Shown in pieces: positions 4,370-62,027 of a DNA stretch of 64,000 bases. The notes under the pieces are model-generated. The model ran no database searches and was not told the DNA's origin. It saw only the letters and a program-made list of their open reading frames with translations. The position numbers were made by a program, and so were the translations under genes. Source of the stretch: a virus (taxonomy: Duplodnaviria; Caudoviricetes). How positions within the stretch are numbered: the stretch's first letter is position 1; every line of letters starts with the position of its first letter. The stretch lies in the IMG/VR virus record IMGVR_UViG_3300046694_000619. One strand, given 5' to 3'.

Positions 4370-5403
4370 ATTTTCCTTTGAATAAATTGAACAATTTCAG
4401 TCAGCTTCTCAGCGGCCAGGAAGCGCTGGGTGTCGCTGGGTTTTGATACGGCGGACAGCCCTGCCAGCTGGCTGTAGACGGCGGGCAATTGAAGGAGCAC
4501 CCCGTCCTGTACAAGCGTCATCAGCTCTTTCACGCTCTCCTTGTCGAGCGCGAGCGTCTGGATTTGCTCAATCGTCAGCGCCTGCGACGTAGTCATCGCG
4601 AGTTGACGCGAAGTCATCAGCTGCCTGATTTCAGGCGCAACGACATCGAAGAGATAGTCGGCTGCCAGGGCGTGCGCTTGCAGCGCCTCTCCGCCGGCCT
4701 CGTTCTTGTGGATGAGCTTCTCTAGCTCACCGATGAGGGTCACAAGCGAAGCACCCGCCTGGGAGAGCAGCGTTTCGAGCTGGCGAACCTCGCTTACAAC
4801 CGATTCCCACACCTTGGAGACGGACCGGCGGAGCAGGCCACCTTCCATCGCGTCGAGCACTTCGCGCAGCAGCGTATTCAGCCGCGAAAGGTGCTGCGTT
4901 ACAGCGCGGGTTTCAGCCGACTCCAGCAGGGCAAGTCGCGCTTTCACGAGCGTTGACACCTGCTCCTGCGCCGGCACGCCGAAGCGGAGCCACGCGGGCA
5001 TATCCATCGTCTGCGGGCACACACCTGCAAGAACCGCATGAACTTCCACGAGCGTCGCGTTCGACGTACCGGGAAAACGGCGCGTGAGCGTTTCAATCGA
5101 GACGTCCAGTGGTTTGCGTTGGGTGCCGGGCATCACAGATGCTTTCACATGCTCAGCCGGCACCACCGCCGGCGCGGGCGCCTGATAAGGCAACCCGGTC
5201 GGCTTCATGGCAGCGGGCTGTGGTGCTGCCTTAGTGGCGGGTGCGGTGGCACCCGGAATTGCCGTCGGCTTGATGGCTGTCGGTCGCACGGATGGCGCCG
5301 GCTCAGCATGTGTCGCGCCCTCGCCAGCCATACCAACCGTGCGAGTCGGTGCGAGCGTGCTGCCCGTTGCCGGCGTGCTGATGATGGTTGGCTTGAAGGT
5401 CAT
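4366..5403 (-). CDS. Hypothetical coiled-coil protein, TelA/KlaA-like
   Basis: Pro/Ala-rich N-terminus, helical C-terminus, in operon with TelA and TerD genes. Confidence 0.55.
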   Translation of the reverse strand: MTFKPTIISTPATGSTLAPTRTVGMAGEGATHAEPAPSVRPTAIKPTAIPGATAPATKAAPQPAAMKPTGLPYQAPAPAVVPAEHVKASVMPGTQRKPLDVSIETLTRRFPGTSNATLVEVHAVLAGVCPQTMDMPAWLRFGVPAQEQVSTLVKARLALLESAETRAVTQHLSRLNTLLREVLDAMEGGLLRRSVSKVWESVVSEVRQLETLLSQAGASLVTLIGELEKLIHKNEAGGEALQAHALAADYLFDVVAPEIRQLMTSRQLAMTTSQALTIEQIQTLALDKESVKELMTLVQDGVLLQLPAVYSQLAGLSAVSKPSDTQRFLAAEKLTEIVQFIQRKM

Positions 5404-5421: not shown

Positions 5422-6057
5422 TTACGAGAAGTGAGCCAGGACTTGATTGAAGTCGTTGTTGAAGCCCACACCGATGAGTGCGAACGACGAGCCGCTTTGC
5501 TCGACCATGATGGAACCGCCTTGCACGCCCACGAACTCGCCAAACTGGTCCGACAGCGACACGTTCATCTGTTCCTCGCCGAGACTGTTTTCGATGATGA
5601 AGCGTGCGTTTTTCACGTCGCGGAACGTCTTGCCGCTGTTTTGCGGGTGAATGGTTGCCAGCAGCGGGATTTCGATGGCGCCGCCGACTGGCGGGTTCAG
5701 GCGGTCCGGCTGGATGGTCACGAATTCGTCGTCACCGGTGGCGCTGCCGTCGAGGGCGTCCGGGCTGTGCACCAGCGCGCCGGCGTAGATTTCGAACGAG
5801 CCATCCGGCTTCTTTTCCAGCGTGCCCACGGCCTGGCCGCGGATAACGCGCTTGACGTTGTAGGTCGACAGGATGTCGTCGAACGACGAAACCTTCGAGC
5901 CCTGGCCGACGTTTACCGCGACGAATGCGTGCAGGTCGAGGTCGACGTCACCTTCCCACGACAGGCGAACCTTGAAGCGTTCGCCCTTGTCGAGGCTCAA
6001 CGAGAGTTTCTGGACGACGTCTTCCGGCTTGGTCAGATTGAGTTGCAGTGCTGCCAT
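5422..6057 (-). CDS. TerD-family stress protein
   Basis: LSW..DVDLDL, HSPDALDG..GDDE motifs. Confidence 0.85.
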   Translation of the reverse strand: MAALQLNLTKPEDVVQKLSLSLDKGERFKVRLSWEGDVDLDLHAFVAVNVGQGSKVSSFDDILSTYNVKRVIRGQAVGTLEKKPDGSFEIYAGALVHSPDALDGSATGDDEFVTIQPDRLNPPVGGAIEIPLLATIHPQNSGKTFRDVKNARFIIENSLGEEQMNVSLSDQFGEFVGVQGGSIMVEQSGSSFALIGVGFNNDFNQVLAHFS

Positions 6058-8724: not shown

Positions 8725-11163
8725 TCAGATGTAGTCGGCGTCTCCGAAATCTACTGAGGCCGTCGACTCACCGGGTGAGGACTCGACGGCCTCTGGCCTG
8801 GGTGCCGCAGCTTCTGCATCCGGGACACGCTCGAGCGGCGCAACCGCGTCGCCGAGCGTTGCCTGGGTGGCGAGTGCAACCGCCTTGTCCGGCAGTGCCG
8901 CGCCAGCCCGCGCCCGTTTCCCGCGGTGCGCGTCGAGGTCCTTGCCGGTCAGCGTGACCTGTGTGTGCTTCTTTCGCGCCGAGGGCGTGGTCGACACCAC
9001 CAGCTCCGTCACCGGCCGTTCATAGGCCGCGACTGACTTCACCGTGTCCTTCCCGCTCAGACTGATGAGCTGCATGCCGCGGCCCTTGGCCATCTGTTTG
9101 AGCTCGACGAGCGGAAACAGCAGCACCTTGCCCGAACTCGCGCCCACGGCAATTTCTCCGCCATCGCGCAGTGCCCTCACGGCGGTCGGAGCCAGAATGG
9201 CTTCACCGTCTTCGAGTGTCATCACCGCCTTGCCGGCCTTCTTGCTCGTGACCAGCTCCGCGCCCGGGCAGAGGAAGCCATAACCGCCGCTGTTGGCCAG
9301 CAGGTAGTGCGTATCAGTGTCGAGCACGAACGCGTGCACAAGCTTGTTCGAGCCAATTTCGACGAATGAGGAGAGCGGCGAGCCGTCACCGCGGCCAGTC
9401 GGGAATACCGACGCCGCGACGTTGTAAGCGCGGCCCGTGTGGTCGAACATCACCACCGTCTGCGTGCTGCGCGTCTCAATTACCGCGAGCGCTTCGTCAC
9501 CCGCTTTCCAAGTGAGCGCGGACAGGTCGACCTTGTGACCGGTGCGCGCGCGCAGCCAGCCCAGTTTCGAGATAACGAGCGTGACCGGGTCATCACTGGT
9601 TGCCACCACCGACGAGGTGGTGATGCGCTCGGCCGACTCGATGAGGGTACGACGCGCGTCGCCATACTTCTTGCGGTCGTCGCCCAGTTCATTGAGCACC
9701 TGCTTCGTCATCGCGCCACGGTCATCGAGCAGGCCTTGCAGCACAGCCTCTTCCTTGCGTAGCTCGGCGAGTTCGCTCTCAATCTTGATGCGCTCGAGAT
9801 TGGCGAGCTGGCGCAGGCGGATTTCAAGAATGTCTGTCGCCTGAATATCGGACAGCCCGAACCGGCTCATGAGCTGTGCCTTGGCATCCGCTGAGTCACG
9901 GATAACGCGGATGACTTCGTCGATATGGAGGAACACCGTCAGGCGGCCCTCGAGGATGTGCATGCGTGCGCGAACCTGGTTCAACAGGAATTGCGTACGG
10001 CGCGTCACGGTCTCGAACCGGAAGGCGACCCATTCTTGGAGCACCTGAAGCAGCCCCTTCTGGCCCGGCGCGCCATCCGCGCCAATGGTCACCAGGTTCA
10101 TCGAGAAGTTCGATTCGAGGCTCGTGTGTGCGAGCAGAACCTGCATCACCTCATCCGGGCTCTGGCGTGAGCTACGCGGCTCTATGATGAGCCGGACCGG
10201 ATGCTGCGCATCGGAATCATCCGAAATCTTGTCGACCACCGACAGCACGAGCGCCTTCAGGTTTGCCTGGTCCTGCGTGAGGCTCTTCTTACCCGCCTTG
10301 AGTTGAGGGTTCGACAACTCTTCGATTTCGGCCATGACCTTCGCCGTGGACGTCCCCGGCGGCAGCTCGGTAATCGCAATCTGCCATTGCCCACGCGCCA
10401 GTGGCTCAACAGTCCAGCGCGCACGCGTGCGCAGCGACCCGCGACCGGTCGTGTAGGCCTTGGCCACTTCGTCCGCCGACGAGATGAGTTGCGCGCCGCC
10501 CGGGAAATCCGGACCCGGCATGATGGCCAGGATGTCTGCGAGCATAGCTTCCGGATGACGGATGAGGTACTCGCAAGCAAGCGCCACTTCAGTCAGGTTG
10601 TGGCTCGGAATTTCGGTGGCCATACCCACAGCGATACCCGATGCGCCGTTCAGAAGCAGCACGGGCAGGCGAGCAGGCAGCAAACCCGGTTCCTGGAGCG
10701 AGCCGTCATAGTTGGGTGCGAAATCCACCGTGCCCTTGTCGAGCTCGCCCAGCAACAGCTCGGCAATCGGCGTCAGGCGTGCTTCGGTATATCGCATTGC
10801 CGCTGGCGAATCGCCATCGCGAGAGCCAAAGTTTCCTTGGCCGTCGACGATGGGGTAGCGCAACGAGAAGTCCTGCGCCATCCGCACCGCGGCGTCATAC
10901 ACCGACGAGTCGCCGTGCGGGTGGTACTTACCGATGATGTCGCCGACGAAACGCGCACACTTCACAGGCTTGCTCTTGTCGTTCAGCCCCATGCGGTGCA
11001 TCGAATAGAGAATGCGCCGTTGCACGGGCTTCTGGCCGTCGCGGACATCCGGGAGCGCGCGGCCCAGCACCACGCTCATTGCATAGGCGAGGTACGCATT
11101 CTCCGCGTAGTCGCCGATGTCGACGGCGTTCGACGAGTCAGCGGGTTCAAGCACTTCAGACAT
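8725..11163 (-). CDS. parC: DNA topoisomerase IV subunit A
   Basis: [26 protein letters not shown] catalytic Tyr; no GyrA-box seen. Confidence 0.93.
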
Positions 11164-14000: not shown

Positions 14001-15971
14001 TCACACGTCGAGGTCCGCTTCCTTGCCGCGCACTTCCAGCCAGGAGCGCCGCGCGCTCGCTTCGCCCTTGCCCATCAGCAGCGTGAAAATGCGATTTACG
14101 TCCTTCATCTCGCCGACCGTGACCGGCAACAGCAAACGCGTATCCGGACTGAGCACGGTGTCTTTCAGCTGGTCGGGGTTCATTTCGCCCAGACCCTTGA
14201 AGCGCGACACTGTCAGCTGCTCGAGCCGGAAGCCATCGCGCTGAAGCTGTGCCACGTTGTCATCGCGCTCCTGCTCGGTCAGGCAGTAAATTTTCTGTGC
14301 CGGACGGCCCTTGCCCTTCGACGGCGCATCGACACGGAAGAGCGGCGGCTTGGCGATGAACACATGCCCGCGCGTCACGAGCTGCGGGAAGTGGCGGTAA
14401 AAGAGCGTGAGCAGTAGCGTCTGGATGTGCGAGCCGTCAACGTCAGCGTCCGAGAGGATGATGACCTTCCCGTAACGCAGGTTGTCCAGCACGCTCGCCG
14501 GCGCTTCGACGTCATGCGGGTCGATACCGAGCGCGACGGAAATGTCGTGCACTTCGTTGTTCTCGAACAGGCGGTCGCGCTCGGTCTCCCACGTGTTGAG
14601 CACCTTCCCGCGCAGCGGCAGGATGGCCTGATACACCCGGTCGCGAGCCACCTTGCAGCCGCCGCCGGCCGAGTCGCCTTCCACGAGGAACAGTTCGTTG
14701 CGCGTGATGTCAGTCAGCTGACAATCGGTAAGCTTTCCGGGCAGGGTTGCCACGCCGGAGCTCTTGCGCTTCTCGACGACCTTGCCGCTACGCAAGCGCG
14801 CAGTCGCCTGCTTGATGACGAGTTCGGCAATCTTCTTACCCGAATCCGGATTGGCCAAAAGCCACTGCATGAAGGGGTCTTTCACGACGGAAGACACGAC
14901 GCGCACAACTTCGCGGCTCGTGAGCTTGTCCTTTGTCTGACCCTGGAACTGGGTGTTGACGATGTGGGCCGACAGCACGAAGTGCGCGCGGCTCCAGACA
15001 TCTTCAGCCTGCAGTGTGATGCCGCGGGGAAGCAGGGCGTGATGCTCGCAGTAGTCACGCATCGCCTCAAAGAGCCCCGTGCGCATGCCCGCTTCGTGGG
15101 TGCCGCCAAGCGGAGTAGGGATAAGGTTCACGTACGACTCGCCCTTGCCCGCTTCCGTGGTCCAGGCCACGGCCCACGCGGCACCATCGCCCGCGACCAC
15201 GTCTTCGCCGTCGGCTACCTTCAGGTGGCCTTCGCCCTTGAAAATATCGCCGACCTGCTCGAGGCCTTCCATGCGCTCTTTCAGATACGCTTTCAGCCCT
15301 TCCTGATAGCACCAAGTCTGTTCTGCGCCCGTGACCTCATTGACGTAGGAGACCGTGATGCCCGGCAGCAACATCGCCTTCGCGCGCAGCAGGTGTTCCA
15401 GCTTCGCGAGCGGGAGATTCCCGGTGTCGAAGTGCTTTGCGTCGGGCCAGAAGCGAACCTTCGTGCCGGACGTGCGAGGTCCGCACTCGCCGATTTGCTC
15501 GACAGGCGAAATCTCGCGGTCGCCTTCGACGAAGCTCACCTTGTAGACCTTTCCTTCGCGCTTCACCTCGACTTCGAGCTTGTGCGAAAGGGCGTTCGTC
15601 ACCGAGACGCCGACACCATGAAGGCCACCCGAGCGAGCGTAGCTATTGCCCTTGCGGAACTTCGCGCCTGCGTGCAGCTTGGTGAATGCGAGGACCACCG
15701 CCGGGATGCCCAGCTTGGGGTGCAATCCCACCGGGATACCCCGGCCGTTATCGGCCACAGAAATGGACCCATCCTTATGCACCGTCAGGGACACCTTGGA
15801 GGCATGGCCGTTCTGGGCCTCATCGACGGCGTTGTCGAGCACCTCCTGGGTGATGTGCAGAGGTGATTCCGTGCGGGTGTACATCCCCGGCAGCTTGCGC
15901 ACGGGGTCCAGCCCTTCGAGAACGTCGATGTCGGATGCGTCGTAGACCTTCTGGTCTTCAGTCGTTGCCAT
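14001..15971 (-). CDS. parE: DNA topoisomerase IV subunit B
   Basis: EVLDNAVDE, GLHGVG, EGDSAGG, PLRGK, DADVDG, RFKGLGEM. Confidence 0.93.
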   Translation of the reverse strand: MATTEDQKVYDASDIDVLEGLDPVRKLPGMYTRTESPLHITQEVLDNAVDEAQNGHASKVSLTVHKDGSISVADNGRGIPVGLHPKLGIPAVVLAFTKLHAGAKFRKGNSYARSGGLHGVGVSVTNALSHKLEVEVKREGKVYKVSFVEGDREISPVEQIGECGPRTSGTKVRFWPDAKHFDTGNLPLAKLEHLLRAKAMLLPGITVSYVNEVTGAEQTWCYQEGLKAYLKERMEGLEQVGDIFKGEGHLKVADGEDVVAGDGAAWAVAWTTEAGKGESYVNLIPTPLGGTHEAGMRTGLFEAMRDYCEHHALLPRGITLQAEDVWSRAHFVLSAHIVNTQFQGQTKDKLTSREVVRVVSSVVKDPFMQWLLANPDSGKKIAELVIKQATARLRSGKVVEKRKSSGVATLPGKLTDCQLTDITRNELFLVEGDSAGGGCKVARDRVYQAILPLRGKVLNTWETERDRLFENNEVHDISVALGIDPHDVEAPASVLDNLRYGKVIILSDADVDGSHIQTLLLTLFYRHFPQLVTRGHVFIAKPPLFRVDAPSKGKGRPAQKIYCLTEQERDDNVAQLQRDGFRLEQLTVSRFKGLGEMNPDQLKDTVLSPDTRLLLPVTVGEMKDVNRIFTLLMGKGEASARRSWLEVRGKEADLDV

Positions 15972-16056
15972 AAAACCTTGCTCGGCTATTCGTTGATGAT
16001 GATGACCATGGGGTATAGCGAGATTGAGAGGGGCCGCACCACAGGCGCCCCGCCAA

Positions 16057-16545
16057 TCAATCTGACAACCGCACCAGGTCAGCGACATTGACCATGCGCA
16101 GCGTCAAGCGCCGGGCAGGGTAGAAAATCTGTTTGGTTTGCACGGCATCGTCGACCAGCACGACCTCCGTGTCGTCGAACTCAGGGCTCATCTCGATGAA
16201 GTGCTGAAATCCGAAGTCCTTGCCATGAAACAGCATGCATTCGTTGTCGCTCTCGAAAACCGTGCCCCGGCTCAGGCAGAGATGAAAAAGCTTCTCTGTC
16301 GTGAAGGTGTCCGCCAGGTCGAGCGTCACGCCGAGCGCCCGGTTGAGCCTTGCCTCAAAGAATTCGCGAAACAGTGCGACCCGGTGCTCATCCCATAGCG
16401 CAAAGGAAAAGAGCCGTACCGCCTCCGGCGCTTCGTCTTCGATAAAACCCCGGACAGGCTCCACGTTCACAAGCCGTGCGAGCGCCGCGGCATCGAATTC
16501 GTCGATGACCGTGTCTTCCAGGTCCAGGAACACGACTTTCTTCAT
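16057..16545 (-). CDS. HAD-like hypothetical protein
   Basis: VVFLDLEDTVI and VLVDD motifs. Confidence 0.6.
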   Translation of the reverse strand: MKKVVFLDLEDTVIDEFDAAALARLVNVEPVRGFIEDEAPEAVRLFSFALWDEHRVALFREFFEARLNRALGVTLDLADTFTTEKLFHLCLSRGTVFESDNECMLFHGKDFGFQHFIEMSPEFDDTEVVLVDDAVQTKQIFYPARRLTLRMVNVADLVRLSD

Positions 16546-29488: not shown

Positions 29489-29586
29489 GCCGAGATAGTC
29501 CGGTCGGTGCCGGTACGAATCCATAAGAGTTGTCGCTTGGTGACCCAGGCGCAGCCCACGCAGTTCGACTCTGCGTCTCGGCTCCA
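29489..29586 (+). ncRNA. Sec/allo-tRNA-like RNA, anticodon unclear
   Basis: GCCGAGA(T)/(G)TCTCGGC acceptor, CGGT D-tetraloop, long variable arm, TTCGACT T-loop, TCCA. Confidence 0.65.
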
Positions 29587-29943: not shown

Positions 29944-30019
29944 GTGCGCTTCGTCTAGTGGCCCAGGACCCCGTCTAACAAGGCGGGAGACACAGGTTCG
30001 AATCCTGTAGCGCGCTCCA
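29944..30019 (+). tRNA. Glu-like tRNA body with 6-nt anticodon loop TAACAA
   Basis: TCGTCTAGTGGCCCAGGAC D arm as in tRNA-Glu; CCGTC-TAACAA-GGCGG. Confidence 0.65.
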
Positions 30020-35084: not shown

Positions 35085-35169
35085 GCTCCGAATGGCGGAA
35101 TTGGTTAGACGCCTTGGTCGTACCAGGGACCGCAAGGTCGTGTGGGTTCGAATCCCGCTTCGGGCACCA
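35085..35169 (+). ncRNA. tRNA-Leu-like RNA with shrunken anticodon loop
   Basis: Leu-type D arm, variable arm and A73-CCA; anticodon arm CTTGG-TCGTA-CCAGG. Confidence 0.7.
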
Positions 35170-47899: not shown

Positions 47900-48787
47900 C
47901 TGGGGGAGACAGCCGTAGCGATACGGTCAAAGCGAGGTAGCCCACTAACTCGCGCCAAGCCTGGCCTGCACTTCGGTGCGGGTGAGGATGGTCAATCCAG
48001 GCAAGCCTCCTCGACCTCGCAAGGGGTTCGTCATCGACCAGCGGTGGCGATAAGGATGAAGCATGTGGCTGGGAAAGAACGTTGGCCGACAAGCCCAAAG
48101 TGCCCTTCGGGGGCTGCGGGGAACTTGGGTCGACGAACAGCAGCGGGTGGTGCCGCGGTCCAGCCTTAACCAACGTGCGAATCTGTACGGGAAAGGGTAG
48201 CGCTGTTGTCGTAGATGCCCTCAATGGCGACAGCGCAGTTCCAGGGGTAATGGGTTCGTTGCAAAACGCGCCCGGAGTCCTGAAGAACCGTCGAGTATCC
48301 GGCAGGAAAAAGACATGATGCGGGTGACATTGGGATGGTCAAAAGCCATTTCAGTCACGGACACGCCCGTATCGGTGGGTTGCAACTAGCTCAATTGGAT
48401 AGAGCAACGGCCTTGAAAGCCGTGGGTTGAAGGTTCAATTCCTTCGTTCACTAAAACGCAAAGTCGTGTCCGGCATTTCGCAACAGTGGCTTAATCCTGT
48501 CCGGGGAACCCCGAAGGCAGGCGCCTGAAATCCGCAAGATGGAGGGTGTTGATTGGATTCCGCACGTAGAGGCTGCAACCTCGAACGGCTCGCAAGGTCG
48601 GCGGTAGGAAGAGAATCGAGTAGCGAGATGCGACAGGGAGAGTTCGCCAGCCCTGGGGTAACCCGAAAGACGGCAGCCATGGCGCTAAACCGGGCTTGAG
48701 CTCGGTGGATACAGGAGGCAAGGTGGGCCGCAAGCTCACTATAATCCTCCTAAGTGGAGCGTCGATTCCGGCTGTAATCTCAGGCCT
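47900..48787 (+). ncRNA. GOLLD-type large RNA with embedded tRNA-like domain (5' end uncertain, may begin ~47770)
   Basis: Motifs recalled from GOLLD: GCGGGTGGTGC, CGAGTA, GAATCGAGTAG, GTGGAT...ATAATC, terminal GGCTGTAATCTCAG; many GNRA/UUCG hairpins; tRNA context. Confidence 0.7.
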
Positions 48788-54291: not shown

Positions 54292-54798
54292 ATGGTAAAT
54301 CTCGACGACTGCTACATCAATCTCGACCTGGATGGTGTCATGGTCGACTTCTACGGGGAAACCTCCCGCATTCTGGGCGCGAACTACAAGAGCCTGCCTT
54401 CCGCGCAAGCGTGGAGTGTGCTCGAGAAGATTCCGCATTTCTTCGAAAAACTGCCGATGCTCCCCGATGCACTCGAACTCTGGAAGGGACTCGAGGGTCG
54501 TGGGCGTCCGTCTCGTGTCCTGACCGCGGTTCCGAAGCCAACGGGCCTGCTCAATACGGCGCCCGGCGACAAACGCATCTGGGTGCGCGAGAACATCAGC
54601 CAGACCGTCCCGGTGCTGATTGCGCCGCACGGCGCTGCGAAGGCGGAGTGGGCCCGGCCGGGCCACATCCTCATCGACGACCTTCAGCGCAACATCGACG
54701 CCTGGGTCGCCGCTGGCGGCATTGGCATCCTGCATCGCAGCGCGCGTGAGACACTCGAGCAGCTCGATGAGCACGCGCCGCTGCTGCAGGCGGCCTGA
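54292..54798 (+). CDS. 5'(3')-deoxyribonucleotidase-like HAD protein
   Basis: LDLDGVMVDF, K..W, ILIDD...N...W...GG.GI.H. Confidence 0.8.
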   Translation: MVNLDDCYINLDLDGVMVDFYGETSRILGANYKSLPSAQAWSVLEKIPHFFEKLPMLPDALELWKGLEGRGRPSRVLTAVPKPTGLLNTAPGDKRIWVRENISQTVPVLIAPHGAAKAEWARPGHILIDDLQRNIDAWVAAGGIGILHRSARETLEQLDEHAPLLQAA

Positions 54799-54816: not shown

Positions 54817-54848
54817 AAAAAAGCCCTCACACCGGAGGGCTTTTGTTT
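54817..54848. terminator. Bidirectional intrinsic terminator
   Basis: aaaaagccctc-acaccg-gagggcttttgttt. Confidence 0.75.
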
Positions 54849-55212
54849 AGTGAAGGCAGGGCGGTTGAACATACCGTCCCCGGTTAAGCGTCTTGTGGTG
54901 GTCGTCGTGCAGGTTTCCCCACACGGTCTTCACCCTCCCATCTACCATCACCACCCATACCAGGTCGAGACGCGCCGTGACCTGGTGCCGAATGACTCGT
55001 TTGAGTATTCGACCCGTCATGGCGCACTCAACTTCCACGATTTCGCTCGAAGCAACGACAAGCTTCGCGGAAAGGTGGCCGGTCAGGTCGCCGTAGCGGT
55101 CCTCGTGTGCGGCCAAAAGTGCATGGCGGGTGTAGTGCAGCGACAAGGCTCCAGGGGTCTGGAACAGCCGCACCGGCGCATAAACATCCTTATGAAAAAG
55201 CATAGTTTGCAT
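54847..55212 (-). CDS. Hypothetical protein
   Basis: YTRHA...DRYG...VKTVW.N..DDHH.TL..Y. Confidence 0.6.
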   Translation of the reverse strand: MQTMLFHKDVYAPVRLFQTPGALSLHYTRHALLAAHEDRYGDLTGHLSAKLVVASSEIVEVECAMTGRILKRVIRHQVTARLDLVWVVMVDGRVKTVWGNLHDDHHKTLNRGRYVQPPCLH

Positions 55213-55407
55213 GATGTACCTCAAAATGGATTTGGCACTCACTGACACGTACACTCGAACAAGGGGATACCCAGCGGTTTCCTCGAATTCGTATAGCTCA
55301 GAGAGTGCCCATCGCAGAGGTAACAACCGCGCAGGTCTGCCACATTTCGGATATTGCATTCAGAGGGGTCTAACGCGTTAATGCTGTTTTATGATATAAT
55401 GCAACTT

Positions 55408-55714
55408 CAGTGAGTCAGACTCATGGGCGGTAGGCTTAGAAGCAGCCAGCGGCGTGAAAACCCGCGTACCGATAATGAGTGGTGATAGGCGCGTGTGACC
55501 GTGGAACTGTTCACCCTGATGAACACCACAGACCCGTGAGATTCGCGGGCACTGGAAGCAGGGCGAGGATGGCAGATACCGAAGGACTGATGCTGCATGG
55601 ACGTGGAGCGGCATCGGAGAAGGCAAGCCATCAGGAAAAAAGGTTGCGAGGGCGTTGTCCCCTGAAATGACCAATAACCTTTGGCGTGAAAGCACACCTG
55701 GGTTTGACCTGCTG
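55408..55714 (+). ncRNA. 23S rRNA GTPase-associated centre (H43/H44) mimic RNA
   Basis: GGCTTAGAAGCAGCCA (55433-55448), ATAATGAGT, GGCGTGAAAGCACAC (55683-55697), closing stem; TGATATAAT promoter element upstream. Confidence 0.7.
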
Positions 55715-55789
55715 ACGCCCTGGACTCGCGGGCGTTAAAACGAGGAGGGAGTCCGGTGGAAGCCCGGCACCGAATACACGGAGAAGCCA

Positions 55790-56128
55790 ATGGCTGAGAA
55801 TTTTGATACCACGCCGTACTACCGCAAGCTGGCCAGCAATGAGCCTCTCACCGAGGACGAAATCGTCTCGCTGCTAAAGGCTGTGGATTCGTTTCGAAAC
55901 GCGACCGCCTATCTGGCGGACTGCCATGCCGCAACGCTCGAGAGCATGCCGCGTTCTGCGTCCAAGTCCGCGCGTACGCGCATGGAATCCATCTGCAAGA
56001 CGTCGGCCGAGCTGCTCGACGGCGGCTACAACCCGTTGACTCATCGCTCCACGCCCGACGCCGCGCAGAAGCGCTGTTTGCGAGTCATCGAAGAAAGCAA
56101 GGCGCTCGTCGGGCCGGTCGGTACCTGA
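55790..56128 (+). CDS. Hypothetical protein
   Basis: GGAG RBS. Confidence 0.6.
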   Translation: MAENFDTTPYYRKLASNEPLTEDEIVSLLKAVDSFRNATAYLADCHAATLESMPRSASKSARTRMESICKTSAELLDGGYNPLTHRSTPDAAQKRCLRVIEESKALVGPVGT

Positions 56129-56699: not shown

Positions 56700-57146
56700 A
56701 TGACCACATTGCTCGAACGCATCCGCCAGGACTCCCTGGCTGCCCGCAAAGCGCGGGAATCGAACAAGGCGCTATTCCTGACGACGCTGTTGTCGGAAGC
56801 CGGCCGTGTCGGTAAGGACGATGGCAACCGCGAGTCGACCGACGCGGAAGTTACCGCGACCATAAAAAAGTTCATTAAGAACACCGACGAAACGCTGCGC
56901 GTGCTGCCGGCTGGTTCGGCCGCTCGAGTGCAACCCGAAGCCGAGCTGGCCATCCTGAATGCCTACCTTCCGCGCCAGGCGAGCGAAGATGAAGTGCGCG
57001 CCGCCGTGGCCCGTTACGTCGCCGAGCTCGCCGAGCGCAACCCGAAGCAGATGGGTGTTGTGATGGGCAAGCTCAATGCCGAGTTCGAAGGCAACTTCGA
57101 CAAGGGGGTTGCGAGCAAGCTGGTCAAGGAAGCGCTCGCAGGCTAA
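56700..57146 (+). CDS. GatB/YqeY domain protein
   Basis: TLLERI..D...ARKA, E.AIL.AYLP.Q.SEDE, KQMG.VMG. Confidence 0.9.
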   Translation: MTTLLERIRQDSLAARKARESNKALFLTTLLSEAGRVGKDDGNRESTDAEVTATIKKFIKNTDETLRVLPAGSAARVQPEAELAILNAYLPRQASEDEVRAAVARYVAELAERNPKQMGVVMGKLNAEFEGNFDKGVASKLVKEALAG

Positions 57147-57523: not shown

Positions 57524-57699
57524 CGGGCAACCCGTCTCATACCCCGCGCAACGCTGTTGCCGGGGTTTTTTAACGTCCACCGTGCCACCGGACAATGGTA
57601 TGGCGGCTGCCGTTGTAAGCATGTCTCGAAAGGTCACGATGCGATAAAATGGCGGTCGACGTCCACAGATTGCGTGGCTTCGAATTTAAGGAAGGGTTC

Positions 57700-58203
57700 A
57701 TGTTTCGTTTCAAATGCGGCAACTGCGACGAATGGCACGAGGGTGCACCAAGTCTGGCCTGCCAAGTTCCGGATATGCTTCTTGCCGTACCGCCAAAGGA
57801 ACGCCGGGCGCGGGTTCAAATTGGCTCCGAAGTTGCAGTTCTGGACGAGAAGCATTTCTTTATTCGCGCCTGCATGAACGTGCCTATCCAGGGCACCGAA
57901 GCTCACTTCACGTGGGGTTTGTGGGCAGATGTTTCCTCGCGCGACTTCTTCGACTACTGCGAACTGTCAGAGAAGGGTGCCGTCGGCGGCCCGTACCAGG
58001 GCAGGCTCGCGAACTCGCTGCCGTTCTACCCCGACTGCCTAAGCATCCCGGTCTCGGTTCAACCCCAATCCGGCGACCAGCGGCCGTTGCTGCTCACGCC
58101 AGATGGCGAAAGCAGCCTTGCACGGCATCTCAGAGAGGGCATGCCCGAGCAGGACGCTAAAGCGTATTTCGAGCGCGTGTTGCACCCAGGTGCCCCGCAC
58201 TGA
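57700..58203 (+). CDS. DUF2199-like protein
   Basis: FKC..C.EWHEG.P, HFFIR...P, FTWGLW..VS, GRLANSLP.YP. Confidence 0.8.
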   Translation: MFRFKCGNCDEWHEGAPSLACQVPDMLLAVPPKERRARVQIGSEVAVLDEKHFFIRACMNVPIQGTEAHFTWGLWADVSSRDFFDYCELSEKGAVGGPYQGRLANSLPFYPDCLSIPVSVQPQSGDQRPLLLTPDGESSLARHLREGMPEQDAKAYFERVLHPGAPH

Positions 58204-59249: not shown

Positions 59250-61877
59250 TCAGGTCAGGCTCCGCTTGAGCCGGCGCAGCTTGATGCGCGCCATCCGCGG
59301 CAAGACGAACGGGTCCCAGCGCAGTTCGGTCAGGCCGACCATCATCAGGCCGGCGACATAGGGCAGCGACAGGATGACCAGCACGCTCGTCCATGACTCG
59401 ACTTCCAGCGACTCCTCCGGATAGATGGTCAGCGCGCCGCATGCCGCGGCAATCAGCAGCGTGCCCAGCCAGATTTCGCGCTTGATGGCCGGGAACGACG
59501 TCACCGAACCTGCCTTCTTCTTCGCCGTCACGATGAACGCCGCGTGCTTGCCGAGCAGCCCGGTCAGGACGCCTTCGGCAATCGCGTAGGTCAGCGCCAC
59601 GCTGGCGAGCGCCGCGCCGAATGTGTCGCTCCAGGACGTGCCTACCTTCCGCTTGAAGAGCCATACGCCCATCACTGCGCGGAACACCGGTACGACGAAC
59701 ACGAGCGCGACCATGGCAGGCGCCGGCGGGCCGAACACCCGGGGGTACGCGGCCATGCCCATGGTCCACGCGAGCGCAACAATAGACCCCATGACCTGCG
59801 CAGCTTCGCTGACCCACGGCAACCACCCCGCGACGAAGTGGTAGCGCTGCGCGAGTGTCAGTTTGCTGCGGCCGAAGATTGTCTTCGCATGCCCACGCAT
59901 AATCTGCATGGCGCCAAGCGCCCACCGGCGACGCTGGCTGCGGAACGCCGCGAAGGTCGCCGGCGCCAGCCCGCGGCCGAACACTTCGTCGACGTAACGG
60001 GTCTCGTGACCAGCTGCCAAGATGCGCAGGCCCAGCTCTGCGTCTTCGCAGATGGTCCACGTCGCCCAGCCGCCCAGTTCACGCAGCACGCTCGCACGCA
60101 TGAGCGCCATCGTGCCGTGCTGAATAATACTGTCGCGCGCCGCACGGTGGTGCATACCCACCCGGAAGAAGCCGTCGAACTCGTACGCGGCCCAGCGCGC
60201 AAGGCGGTCATTCTCGAAATCACGGTGCGCCTGCGGTGCCTGCACGAGCGCAACCGGAGCCTCAGCAAAGTGCCCTACGAGGTCGTGCAGCCAGTTCGGC
60301 TCGACCACGTAGTCCGCGTCCACCACGCCGATGACATCAGCATCCGTGTGCGTTTGTTCCAGCGCGTGATTCAGCGCTTCCGCCTTGAATCCAGGGCAGA
60401 ACGGCAGATGCCAGAAACGAAAATGCTCGGCGTGCTCGGCTACCCACGCCTGCACCGGCCGCCACAGGTTCTCATCCTTCGTGTTGTTGTCGACCACCAG
60501 GACTTCGAAGTTGCGATAGTTCAGCGCGGCAAAGCTTTCGAGCGTAGCAATCACCATCTCCGGCGGCTCGTTCGCGCAAGCCAGATGAAGGCTGACGAAC
60601 GGCTCCGGCTCGCCATCAGCAAGCGGCTTGCGCTGATGCAACTCCGTCACGCCCTTGCGACCGAGCACCTCGAGACCTTCGAACAACTGCACCCAAAGCA
60701 CGACGACACAAAGCGCAGTCATCGGCGTCAGCAAGCCATACAGAACGAGTCGCGATGCGGAGTACAAGCCATCGAAGGACAGGGCGTACGAGCCCAGATA
60801 GGCCGCGCCGCCAAATAGCGCCATTCCCATCAACAGTCGGCACCCGACGTTCCAGGTGCGCGCAAGATACATGGCCAGCAGGACAAACGGGGCAACCACG
60901 ATGAATAGCCGGGAAGCGAGAAGCGGAAAGTTAGCCGTTTTCCAGACGGTGCCTGCGGCATGAATCTTCAGATGGCGGTCGCCATCCCAGATGCCCCAAA
61001 ATGCACCCGCACGACCCTCAATTTCAGATTTGTACGGCTGGTCGAATGCCTCGATGATGTAATAGTCCGCGCCGACGGCAGCAGCCTGCTGCACAAAGGA
61101 GCGCAGATACATAGTTTCGTTTTGCAGACTCGCTTTCGCGTGACCCACCGTATCGCCGGCTGACGGCCAGCCGGTTTCGGTCACCACGATTTTCTTGCCC
61201 GGAAACTTCTCCTGCATCAGCTTCAGCCGCGAAATCGAAAAATCTACGGCCTTGTCGGCAGGGACATCATCCCAGTAGGGAAGCAAGTGCACCGCGATGA
61301 AGTCAACGTGCTTCGCAAGCTCGGGCTGCGTGAGCCACATGGTCCACGGCTCAGCCGTCGACACGGGCTTCTTTGTTTTCTTCTTCACTTCGTCGAGGTA
61401 GCTCGCCAGTTGCTCCGCGGTGATGTCGCCGCGCACCAATGTTTCGTTGCCCACGAGCAGCCGGCTGACGTTGGGGAGCTTCGAATTTTCGATGAGCGCA
61501 TCGAGCTCGCGCCGGTCGGTACCCTGGTTGCCCTGGAGCCAGGCGCCCGCGGTCACGTCGATGCCGTAGTCGTTCGCGATGGCGGCCACGTTCGGGCCTT
61601 CATTCGAGGCATAAAGGCGCAGACGGTGCGTGTGCTTGGCAAGGATGGCCATGTCATCACGAACCTGAGCTTCGGAGGGATACCGCCCCTTCAGGGGGTC
61701 CTGGTCTGGCCGATAACCGGAGTAGGTGACGCCGGCGAGCTGACCGTCCCATGAGGGCGCGGTCACAGGCGCTTGAGTCCAGGTCCAGACGGCGAGCACC
61801 GCGGCGGCGGCCACAGCGCATAGAATGGTTGCGACGAGCAGATGCCCGCATCGCTTGAAGAACGACGGAGAGGTCAC
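59250..61877 (-). CDS. GH17 + GT2 fusion, NdvB-like beta-1,3-glucan synthesis protein
   Basis: VGNE, VHLLPYW, ETGWPS (GH17); DADY, CED, QRRRW (GT2). Confidence 0.88.
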   Translation of the reverse strand: MTSPSFFKRCGHLLVATILCAVAAAAVLAVWTWTQAPVTAPSWDGQLAGVTYSGYRPDQDPLKGRYPSEAQVRDDMAILAKHTHRLRLYASNEGPNVAAIANDYGIDVTAGAWLQGNQGTDRRELDALIENSKLPNVSRLLVGNETLVRGDITAEQLASYLDEVKKKTKKPVSTAEPWTMWLTQPELAKHVDFIAVHLLPYWDDVPADKAVDFSISRLKLMQEKFPGKKIVVTETGWPSAGDTVGHAKASLQNETMYLRSFVQQAAAVGADYYIIEAFDQPYKSEIEGRAGAFWGIWDGDRHLKIHAAGTVWKTANFPLLASRLFIVVAPFVLLAMYLARTWNVGCRLLMGMALFGGAAYLGSYALSFDGLYSASRLVLYGLLTPMTALCVVVLWVQLFEGLEVLGRKGVTELHQRKPLADGEPEPFVSLHLACANEPPEMVIATLESFAALNYRNFEVLVVDNNTKDENLWRPVQAWVAEHAEHFRFWHLPFCPGFKAEALNHALEQTHTDADVIGVVDADYVVEPNWLHDLVGHFAEAPVALVQAPQAHRDFENDRLARWAAYEFDGFFRVGMHHRAARDSIIQHGTMALMRASVLRELGGWATWTICEDAELGLRILAAGHETRYVDEVFGRGLAPATFAAFRSQRRRWALGAMQIMRGHAKTIFGRSKLTLAQRYHFVAGWLPWVSEAAQVMGSIVALAWTMGMAAYPRVFGPPAPAMVALVFVVPVFRAVMGVWLFKRKVGTSWSDTFGAALASVALTYAIAEGVLTGLLGKHAAFIVTAKKKAGSVTSFPAIKREIWLGTLLIAAACGALTIYPEESLEVESWTSVLVILSLPYVAGLMMVGLTELRWDPFVLPRMARIKLRRLKRSLT

Positions 61878-62027
61878 GTTGGCCTCGGGTTGCCTCAGCA
61901 ACAAAAGGGGTTGGAATCGCACTAATATAGCATCAAATATGCTATATGCCAACTTCCCCTAGGTGATTGCCCTTTCCCGCTATACGTGGAGAGGCAATAC
62001 CGCCCGGACAACCTGAATGGAATCAAC

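Follow-up and report, generated by a model that had tools for sequence, protein, structure and literature searches.

The window, by which we mean the whole 64,000-nt stretch of viral DNA analysed in this study, carries at 55408–55744 on the plus strand a free-standing gene that specifies a structured non-coding RNA and has its own predicted extended −10 promoter. The positions in brackets below follow the numbering of E. coli 23S rRNA (rrlH), which is consistent with that of the 60-nt construct used in PMC1802607, and the gene is made up of the following parts.

55392–55400, plus strand: extended −10 promoter TGATATAAT, read directly, without a recognisable −35 hexamer
55408–55744, plus strand: predicted non-coding RNA of about 330 nt, its extent taken from the promoter position and the 3′ hairpin, both ends being predicted
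55414–55426, plus strand: 5′ strand of the closing stem P1, which corresponds to the top of H42, pairing with 55697–55708
55428–55432, plus strand: 5′ strand of the H43 lower stem, CGGUA (1057–1061), pairing with UACCG at 55467–55471
55433–55447, plus strand: H43 top stem and loop GGCUUAGAAGCAGCC (1062–1076, with the A1067 loop), identical to E. coli 23S
55448–55466, plus strand: junction A and inserted hairpin GCGGCGUGAAAACCCGCG, with a purine-rich loop of consensus U-G-R-R-A-A/U
55467–55471, plus strand: 3′ strand of the H43 lower stem, UACCG (1077–1081), pairing with 55428–55432, with covariation (helix 2)
55472–55480, plus strand: junction AUAAU (1082–1086) and GAGU (1087–1090, with the bulged A1088)
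55481–55679, plus strand: 199-nt domain between 1090 and 1091, closed by GGUGAUAG/CAAUAACC
55680–55683, plus strand: linker UUUG between this insert and H44, without a counterpart in true 23S rRNA
55684–55697, plus strand: H44 hairpin GCG-UGAA-AGC and ACAC (1091–1104)
55697–55708, plus strand: 3′ strand of P1, with covariation (helix 1)
55715–55735, plus strand: 3′ hairpin ACGCCC-N9-GGGCGU, without a U tract, read directly and kept in loci L220, L225, and L197

The extended −10 element that the original prediction had placed just upstream of the RNA is present as TGATATAAT, and its spacing to the closing stem is kept in relatives: TGnTATAAT stands 8–10 nt 5′ of that stem in the window copy and in L220, L225, and L197, and the same slot is occupied by TGGTATAAT in L216 and by TATAAT in L195. 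The position of this promoter predicts a transcription start at approximately 55407–55410. At the other end of the gene, the hairpin at 55715–55735 is a possible terminator or processing stem, and canonical terminators are found at the equivalent 3′ position in L191, L195, L223, and the Xanthomonas phage XacN1. Scans for consensus promoters and terminators called neither the −10 element nor the 55715–55735 hairpin. Contigs from four RNA-labelled libraries, each from a different study, covered 55440–55744, 55437–55698, 55520–55691, and 55461–55667 with 95–99% identity to the window; such contigs give neither strand nor ends, and DNA carry-over is possible. Three of the four runs contained no contig on the flanking genes and the fourth, X21, contained one 281-nt contig in the upstream gene, the uncovered parts being uninformative. 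This coverage is a hint that the element is expressed.

Genomic setting of the RNA gene

The DNA of the window recurs in rhizosphere metagenomes, and its source is a large tRNA-rich mobile element of rhizosphere soil, likely a jumbo phage, with a plasmid as the alternative. A total of 52 tRNA genes are located between 28127 and 53411, all of them on the plus strand, which is also the strand of the RNA element, and the element itself lies 2022 nt past the last gene of this array. According to ARAGORN, two tRNAs of the array have four-base anticodons (aaca at 29944–30019 and acca at 35086–35169), and the array also contains a 98-nt tRNA-Tyr(ata) at 29489–29586 and five tRNA-Met(cat) genes. A GOLLD RNA, detected at 48317–48786 (+) with 154.6 bits against a gathering threshold of 150, shares the strand of the element and precedes it by 7 kb; a tRNA-like match is embedded in it at 48384–48448.

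Among the protein-coding genes of the window, those for two topoisomerase II subunits, at 8725–11163 (−) and 14001–16088 (−), match the phage families phrog_551 and phrog_543. The scan of 28 window ORFs against PHROGs revealed no clear capsid or tail gene, and the terminase-like matches were weak. A YqeY/GatB-like protein is encoded 1 kb downstream of the RNA, at 56700–57146 (+), with a match to PF09424 (E = 7.5e-23) and the PHROG description “tRNA amidotransferase”; the same region holds genes for a DUF2199 protein (57649–58203, +) and a 900-aa family-2 glycosyltransferase (59250–61952, −). On the upstream side, a hairpin with flanking A/T runs at 54819–54844, located between the convergent genes 54292–54798 (+) and 54847–55359 (−), looks from its sequence like a two-way terminator.

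Correspondence with the ribosomal GTPase-associated centre

The element shares GGCTTAGAAGCAGCCA, at 55433–55448, with positions 1062–1077 of E. coli rrlH 23S rRNA, with identity at all 16 positions, and this 16-mer is its sole significant match to the whole E. coli 23S (E = 2e-4). Further downstream, ATAATGAGT at 55472–55480 corresponds to 1082–1090, and the last 14 nt of GGCGTGAAAGCACAC, at 55683–55697, correspond to 1091–1104, where GCGUGAAAGC is the H44 hairpin (1091–1100) and ACAC represents 1101–1104. All of the sequence blocks on which the original prediction was based, as well as the closing stem, whose core is formed by gtcagactca (55414–55423) and tgggtttgac (55699–55708), were found where it had placed them. 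Two of its readings had to be corrected: the H44 loop, given as UAAU, reads UGAA, which makes position 1095 a G, and position 1101, given as U, is an A in the window copy. The window contains a single occurrence of the 15-mer and a single occurrence of the 3′ block; when up to two mismatches are permitted, the 15-mer occurs once against 0.17 occurrences expected, and the expectation for an exact 15-mer in 128 kb (both strands counted) is, by simple arithmetic, about 1e-4.

The elements of the ribosomal fold are present in the window copy as well. A three-way junction is formed by the H42-type stem together with the H43 lower stem, 1057–1061/1077–1081, with compensatory changes in both, and the H43 hairpin carries the loop UUAGAAGCA on a GGC/GCC stem. 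The H44 hairpin of the type GCG-NNNN-AGC, the pair G1087–C1102, and the bulged A1088 are all in place (55684–55693 and 55477–55480), and the bases of known tertiary contacts are kept, namely, U1060, A1088, G1071, C1072, G1091–C1100, and C1092–G1099. Three bases are unlike those of rRNA: A1101 (U in rRNA), G1095 (A in rRNA), and A1061. The last of these is the same base as in the U1061A variant, a change that stabilises the fold of the isolated domain in an NMR construct (PMC1802607). In addition, the usual non-canonical pairs U1060·U1078 and U1061·A1077 are replaced by Watson–Crick pairs in the window copy.

The comparison with LSU rRNA and Rfam models that had been proposed as a check returned no match for the element itself. 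In Rfam 15, nothing reached the gathering threshold, and the search at E values up to 10 produced only a chance match to pemK (E = 9.6); the LSU rRNA model (RF02541) had no match in the window at the gathering threshold or at E values up to 10. The LSU model in Infernal does match the short-insert family member L026, at model positions 1092–1152 (28.8 bits, E = 3.7e-5).

Homologue family, covariation and grafted domains

The same split design was found in over 100 different contigs from viruses and metagenomes. It consists of an H42-like closing stem, H43, a variable domain at 1090/1091, the linker UUUG, and the H44 hairpin GCGUnnnAGCACAC, and the window copy has every one of these features, including A1101 and the covarying closing stem. 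Scanning IMG/VR with the exact 15-mer gave at least 120 loci, and after chance matches in coding DNA had been discarded, at least 84 distinct elements were left with the same flanks and with the GCGUnnnAGCACAC block 15–364 nt downstream; scanning with the 3′ block gave at least 50 further members, in which H43 differs at one to five positions. The failure of homologues to keep the H43/H44 blocks had been named in advance as an outcome that would speak against the proposal; the blocks are conserved, in the same split architecture, in more than 100 of them. The insert at 1090/1091 is 15–364 nt in length and belongs to several recurring types. Over the whole family, the inserts bear no relation to each other, and the core is nearly invariant, including the tertiary-contact bases. 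The insert is absent altogether from at least one stand-alone member, L085, and the blocks of L236 are only 39 nt apart. When the ORFs within 4 kb of 104 members were clustered, no shared protein neighbour was found, the largest cluster consisting of four closely related loci.

The element is also present in the cultured Xanthomonas phage XacN1 (L228, AP018399.1, ~150230–150600), where it was verified in full. This copy is unannotated and fills an unannotated 360-nt gap directly 3′ of a gene annotated as 2′-5′ RNA ligase, and a strong intrinsic terminator follows right after its closing stem. The phage-collection search with the element and the 14 kb around it yielded tRNA-sized matches only. 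In the scan of bacterial genomes, among the matches listed, approximately 81 of 120 were due to chance and at least about 35 were true members; this collection provided no evidence for a chromosomal bacterial gene, and the true members, where checked, were located in metagenome-assembled or draft contigs. Two copies are present on some contigs: L068 contains a tandem pair (5138–5152 and 5456–5470) 318 nt apart, and L206 contains a hairpin-subtype copy together with a plain copy (1673–1692 and a second site). Two other candidates, the Paenibacillus phage Pd_22F (L229) and L204, were rejected as family members, both being true 23S rRNA. The Pd_22F record (MZ092003.1, ~83400–84070) includes several hundred bases of genuine 23S near one end, probably host DNA or an assembly artefact.

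Counts taken over 104 members reveal how the core varies. The pair 1057–1081 is A-U in 77 and C-G in 20 of them, and 1058–1080 is found as G-C (45 members), U-A (33), A-U (13), and C-G (8); G1059–C1079 is kept in 101/104, and U1060 is invariant. The pair 1082–1086 is U-A in 51 members, C-G in 29, and A-U in 12, the last being the state of the window copy. GAGU is present in 94 and the UUUG linker in 88 of the 104. The H44 loop is UGAA in two members and UAAU or UAAC in most, with variable bases at 1096 and 1097. The closing stem is long throughout the family and different in sequence between members. Since the members found via the 3′ block alone constitute a sample unbiased for H43, the conservation of this helix was read from them: G1063, U1066, G1071, C1072, and C1075 are conserved at 99–100%, the loop is looser (G1068 80%, A1070 83%, and A1067 88%), and the top stem covaries (GGC/GCC, AGC/GCU, and GGA/UCC). 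Fold bases at 99–100%, set beside looser H43 loop bases and a variable H44 loop, indicate that selection acts on the fold, and these sequence comparisons point to selection on the fold that is tighter than that on the listed H43 loop bases.

The window copy represents a derived subtype of this family, in which the 3′ strand of H43 carries an extra hairpin and H44 a conserved domain of 199 nt. When metagenomes were searched with the subtype’s 5′ block, the number of distinct two-insert sequences rose to 18, including the window; the others are all metagenomic, and these relatives are 52–96% identical to the window. The subtype pattern GAGTGGTGATAGGYG, when tried as a finder, returned L031 and 60 chance matches in coding DNA. 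The RNA is 96% identical to that of L220, and several neighbouring proteins are only 57–67% identical. The structure, comprising 67 pairs in 14 helices, was set by hand because RNAalifold with default settings mispaired H43 and H44. Over the 18 sequences, 87.3% of cells are paired in the hand-set fold against 32–41% when the partners are slid, 41 of the 67 pairs change on both sides, and the observed values were reached in none of 500 shuffles. Compensatory changes were found in all nine tested pairs of P1 (helix 1), and covariation was likewise observed in the H43 lower stem (helix 2), at 1082–1086, and in the insert; G1091–C1100 and C1092–G1099 (helix 14) are invariant among these relatives.

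The first of the two inserts consists of an A and an 18-nt hairpin that follow C1076 and precede the 3′ strand of H43 (1076/1077), and its stem is compensated in relatives (CCGG/CCGG, CGAGG/CUUGC, and CUGGG/CCCAG; helix 4). An insert of 19–32 nt occupies the same site in 37/104 members of the family. An insert of about 20 nt after the first block had been foreseen, and a hairpin of 18–19 nt does exist at 55448–55466; its placement had to be revised, since it lies inside H43, of which cggta/taccg is the lower stem. The larger structured insert, predicted at about 200 nt together with its closing stem, proved to be 199 nt long (55481–55679) and closed by ggtgatag/caataacc, with covarying helices, at least five in number. 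Helices 6–13, which belong to this domain, are 76–96% paired among the 18 relatives, with compensatory changes in most pairs, and two purine-rich strands are conserved, CAGAUACCGAAGGA at 55573–55586 and AGAAGGCAAGCC at 55618–55629. No significant similarity was found between the 199-nt insert and the whole E. coli 23S, including the sarcin-ricin loop. The sites 1076/1077 and 1090/1091 are the two places at which natural members bear large extra domains.

The split-architecture homologues, the covariation, and the LSU model match to L026 bear out the central claim of the original prediction, namely, that a stand-alone RNA reproduces H42–H44. The transcript is almost certainly a real structured RNA belonging to a family of mimics of the GTPase-associated centre.

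Possible functions and related systems

The best explanation for such an RNA, to which we give an even chance of being correct, is that it serves as an off-ribosome decoy or sponge of the GTPase-associated centre, folding alone into the shape of the ribosomal site. For its function, the original prediction had likewise suggested titration of uL11 or the stalk, modulation of RelA or translational GTPases, or a decoy role, all of which are hypotheses at present. It would probably act via its ribosome-copying fold rather than via the inserts, the core being what the members share and hence what selection acts on. Host uL11 would be the most likely ligand because this protein binds the isolated rRNA domain; both uL11 and thiostrepton bind the isolated 60-nt fragment (PMC1802607). 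A search of five carrier phage genomes detected neither a gene nor a domain of uL11, so any uL11 partner would be that of the host. Alternatively, the ligand could be a factor, toxin, or antibiotic that recognises the GTPase-associated centre. The bacterial toxin Tre23 ADP-ribosylates H44 at 1095–1098 (PMC8661411), which means that this centre is attacked in bacterial conflicts. Capture of uL11 could leave the cell with ribosomes poor in this protein and with a blunted RelA response; in the other case, the real ribosomes would be shielded from an agent aimed at their GTPase-associated centre.

Several features of the window copy bear on the choice of ligand. The region contacted by the C-domain of uL11 is 1075–1083 (PMC1802607), and with a hairpin inserted within it and with Watson–Crick pairs in place of the non-canonical ones, the canonical docking of uL11 may be altered or blocked. 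Direct binding of uL11 by this copy is put forward tentatively, at somewhat less than an even chance. G1095, which is A in rRNA and in most members, would weaken contacts of the thiostrepton type as well as those of factors, and both the hairpin and this base make host uL11 a less convincing ligand. The closing stem lacks the conserved sequence of H42 and the uL10 site, so sequence provides no support for binding of the stalk base. Moreover, the linkage of the family to tRNA arrays receives no explanation from the uL11 decoy model.

A decoy that needs no protein can also be envisaged, though we regard it as unlikely. The hairpin in the uL11 footprint would replace the stabilising role of uL11, and the RNA would present its A1067/H44 face and thereby capture a Tre23-type toxin or interfere with the host uL11/RelA pathway. 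If true, such a protein-free decoy would be the first viral RNA known to counter its host through mimicry of a ribosomal functional centre.

The position of the family next to tRNA genes suggests another role, in which the A1067 face would bind, chaperone, or shield the element’s own tRNAs, or the RNA would be a processing or stability module of array transcripts. The family is one of large phages, and most often its members are located within arrays of tRNA genes that have the same orientation. On the ribosome, the A1067 face contacts the elbow of the incoming tRNA. A tRNA gene is located within 300 nt in 45/104 members and within 100 nt in 33/104, all 258 tRNA genes found within 2 kb of members are co-oriented with the element, and several members (e.g., L001) are sandwiched between two tRNA genes with spacers of a few nucleotides; the window itself has its 52 tRNA genes and GOLLD on the strand of the RNA. 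However, the window copy stands 2 kb beyond the last tRNA gene with its own predicted promoter, the copy in XacN1 forms an independent unit that lies next to an RNA ligase gene and has its own terminator, A1067 is conserved in only 88%, and the co-location may reflect merely the shared expression of stable RNAs. We consider a tRNA-linked role to be rather improbable.

A low probability is also assigned to the core being no more than a stable three-way-junction chassis, with the activity residing in the grafted domains through protein binding or through the formation of multimers, as in GOLLD/ROOL. The 199-nt insert of the window copy, well structured, conserved within the subfamily, and provided with its two purine-rich strands, would fit such a scaffold, as would the recurrence of insert types over the 15–364-nt range of lengths. 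The mutually unrelated inserts on a near-invariant core speak against it, as do L085, which dispenses with the insert, and L236, with 39 nt between its blocks.

It is very unlikely that the element is a cis-regulatory leader, comparable to the leaders of r-protein mRNAs, of the 112-aa ORF at 55790–56128. This ORF begins about 80 nt after the element and shares its strand, the closest relatives (L220, L225, L197, and L211) have retained it, and no U-rich terminator separates the two. Nevertheless, its product, which matches nothing in Pfam or PHROG, is not a ribosomal protein, and it is only 57–59% identical where the RNA is 95–96% identical; other neighbours or tRNA genes flank the RNA in distant members of the subfamily and elsewhere in the family, terminators directly follow the RNA in relatives, and no Rfam r-protein leader matches the element.

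Finally, a degraded rRNA fragment, an assembly chimera, or a protein-coding region, for which one could cite the 16-nt exact 23S match, the three ORFs of 63–127 aa that overlap the element region, and the true rRNA fragments that do occur in “phage” records such as Pd_22F and L204, is refuted by the covariation and by frame breaks in the tblastn matches to this region in L205, L223, L193, and L195, while the lack of flanking or other 23S similarity, the lack of an LSU match in the window, the presence of the same DNA in many independent rhizosphere runs, and the more than 100 homologues with the split design and compensatory changes agree with the original view that the element is not an rRNA pseudogene.

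Viruses are partly defined by having no ribosome, and yet one functional centre of the ribosome is preserved, as a near-exact copy with covariation support, in a large family of phage RNAs. No description of this mimic family was found in open-access papers and preprints, nor does Rfam 15 contain such a family. Binding to uL11, RelA, a translation GTPase, or a ribosome-targeting toxin, if it occurs, would make the RNA a means of manipulating host translation or evading defence at the RNA level and would help to explain the enigmatic stable RNAs of phage tRNA islands. The cultured carrier XacN1 makes the question directly testable.

The closest known structure is the GTPase-associated centre of 23S rRNA itself (the top of H42, H43, and H44; E. 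coli 1051–1108), from which the 58–60-nt fragment binding uL11 and thiostrepton is derived. Both are three-way junctions, and the phage RNA keeps the top of H43 (1062–1077), the GCG/AGC stem of H44, G1087–C1102, A1088, U1060, the triple-forming G1071/C1072, and, through covariation, the 1082–1086 pair. It differs in being a separate transcription unit on a mobile element, outside any rRNA gene, and in having the 199-nt domain with UUUG, A1101, the hairpin inserted in H43, and the UGAA loop; its closing stem has no rRNA sequence, no Kt-42, and no uL10 site. Compared with the rest of the mimic family, the window copy is distinguished by its two inserts, by its position 2 kb outside the tRNA array with a predicted promoter of its own, and by its UGAA loop.

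The leaders of r-protein mRNAs, such as the L10 leader (RF00557), are likewise non-rRNA transcripts that imitate an rRNA site of protein binding. They are partial mimics that act in cis, in front of r-protein genes, in feedback control, whereas the phage RNA reproduces a near-exact, whole rRNA domain and stands alone, with no r-protein gene nearby; neither L10_leader (RF00557) nor other r-protein leaders of Rfam matched the element, and the neighbouring genes do not encode r-proteins. GOLLD and ROOL are also large structured non-coding RNAs of phages that are situated in tRNA regions, prophages included, and a preprint describes them as forming RNA-only multimers (bioRxiv 10.1101/2024.12.08.627333). 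In contrast to the present RNA, they do not imitate rRNA; their models revealed no similarity to the element, and the GOLLD match in the window is confined to 48317–48786. With regard to the proposed mode of action, the nearest parallel is pseudo-ToxI, a phage decoy RNA that imitates the repeat of an antitoxin RNA and has a proven target (PMC3475682). In both cases, a phage RNA would imitate a host RNA in order to capture a protein, the capture being proposed for the window RNA by inference, and the difference lies in what is imitated, which is a ribosomal domain here and an antitoxin repeat in pseudo-ToxI.
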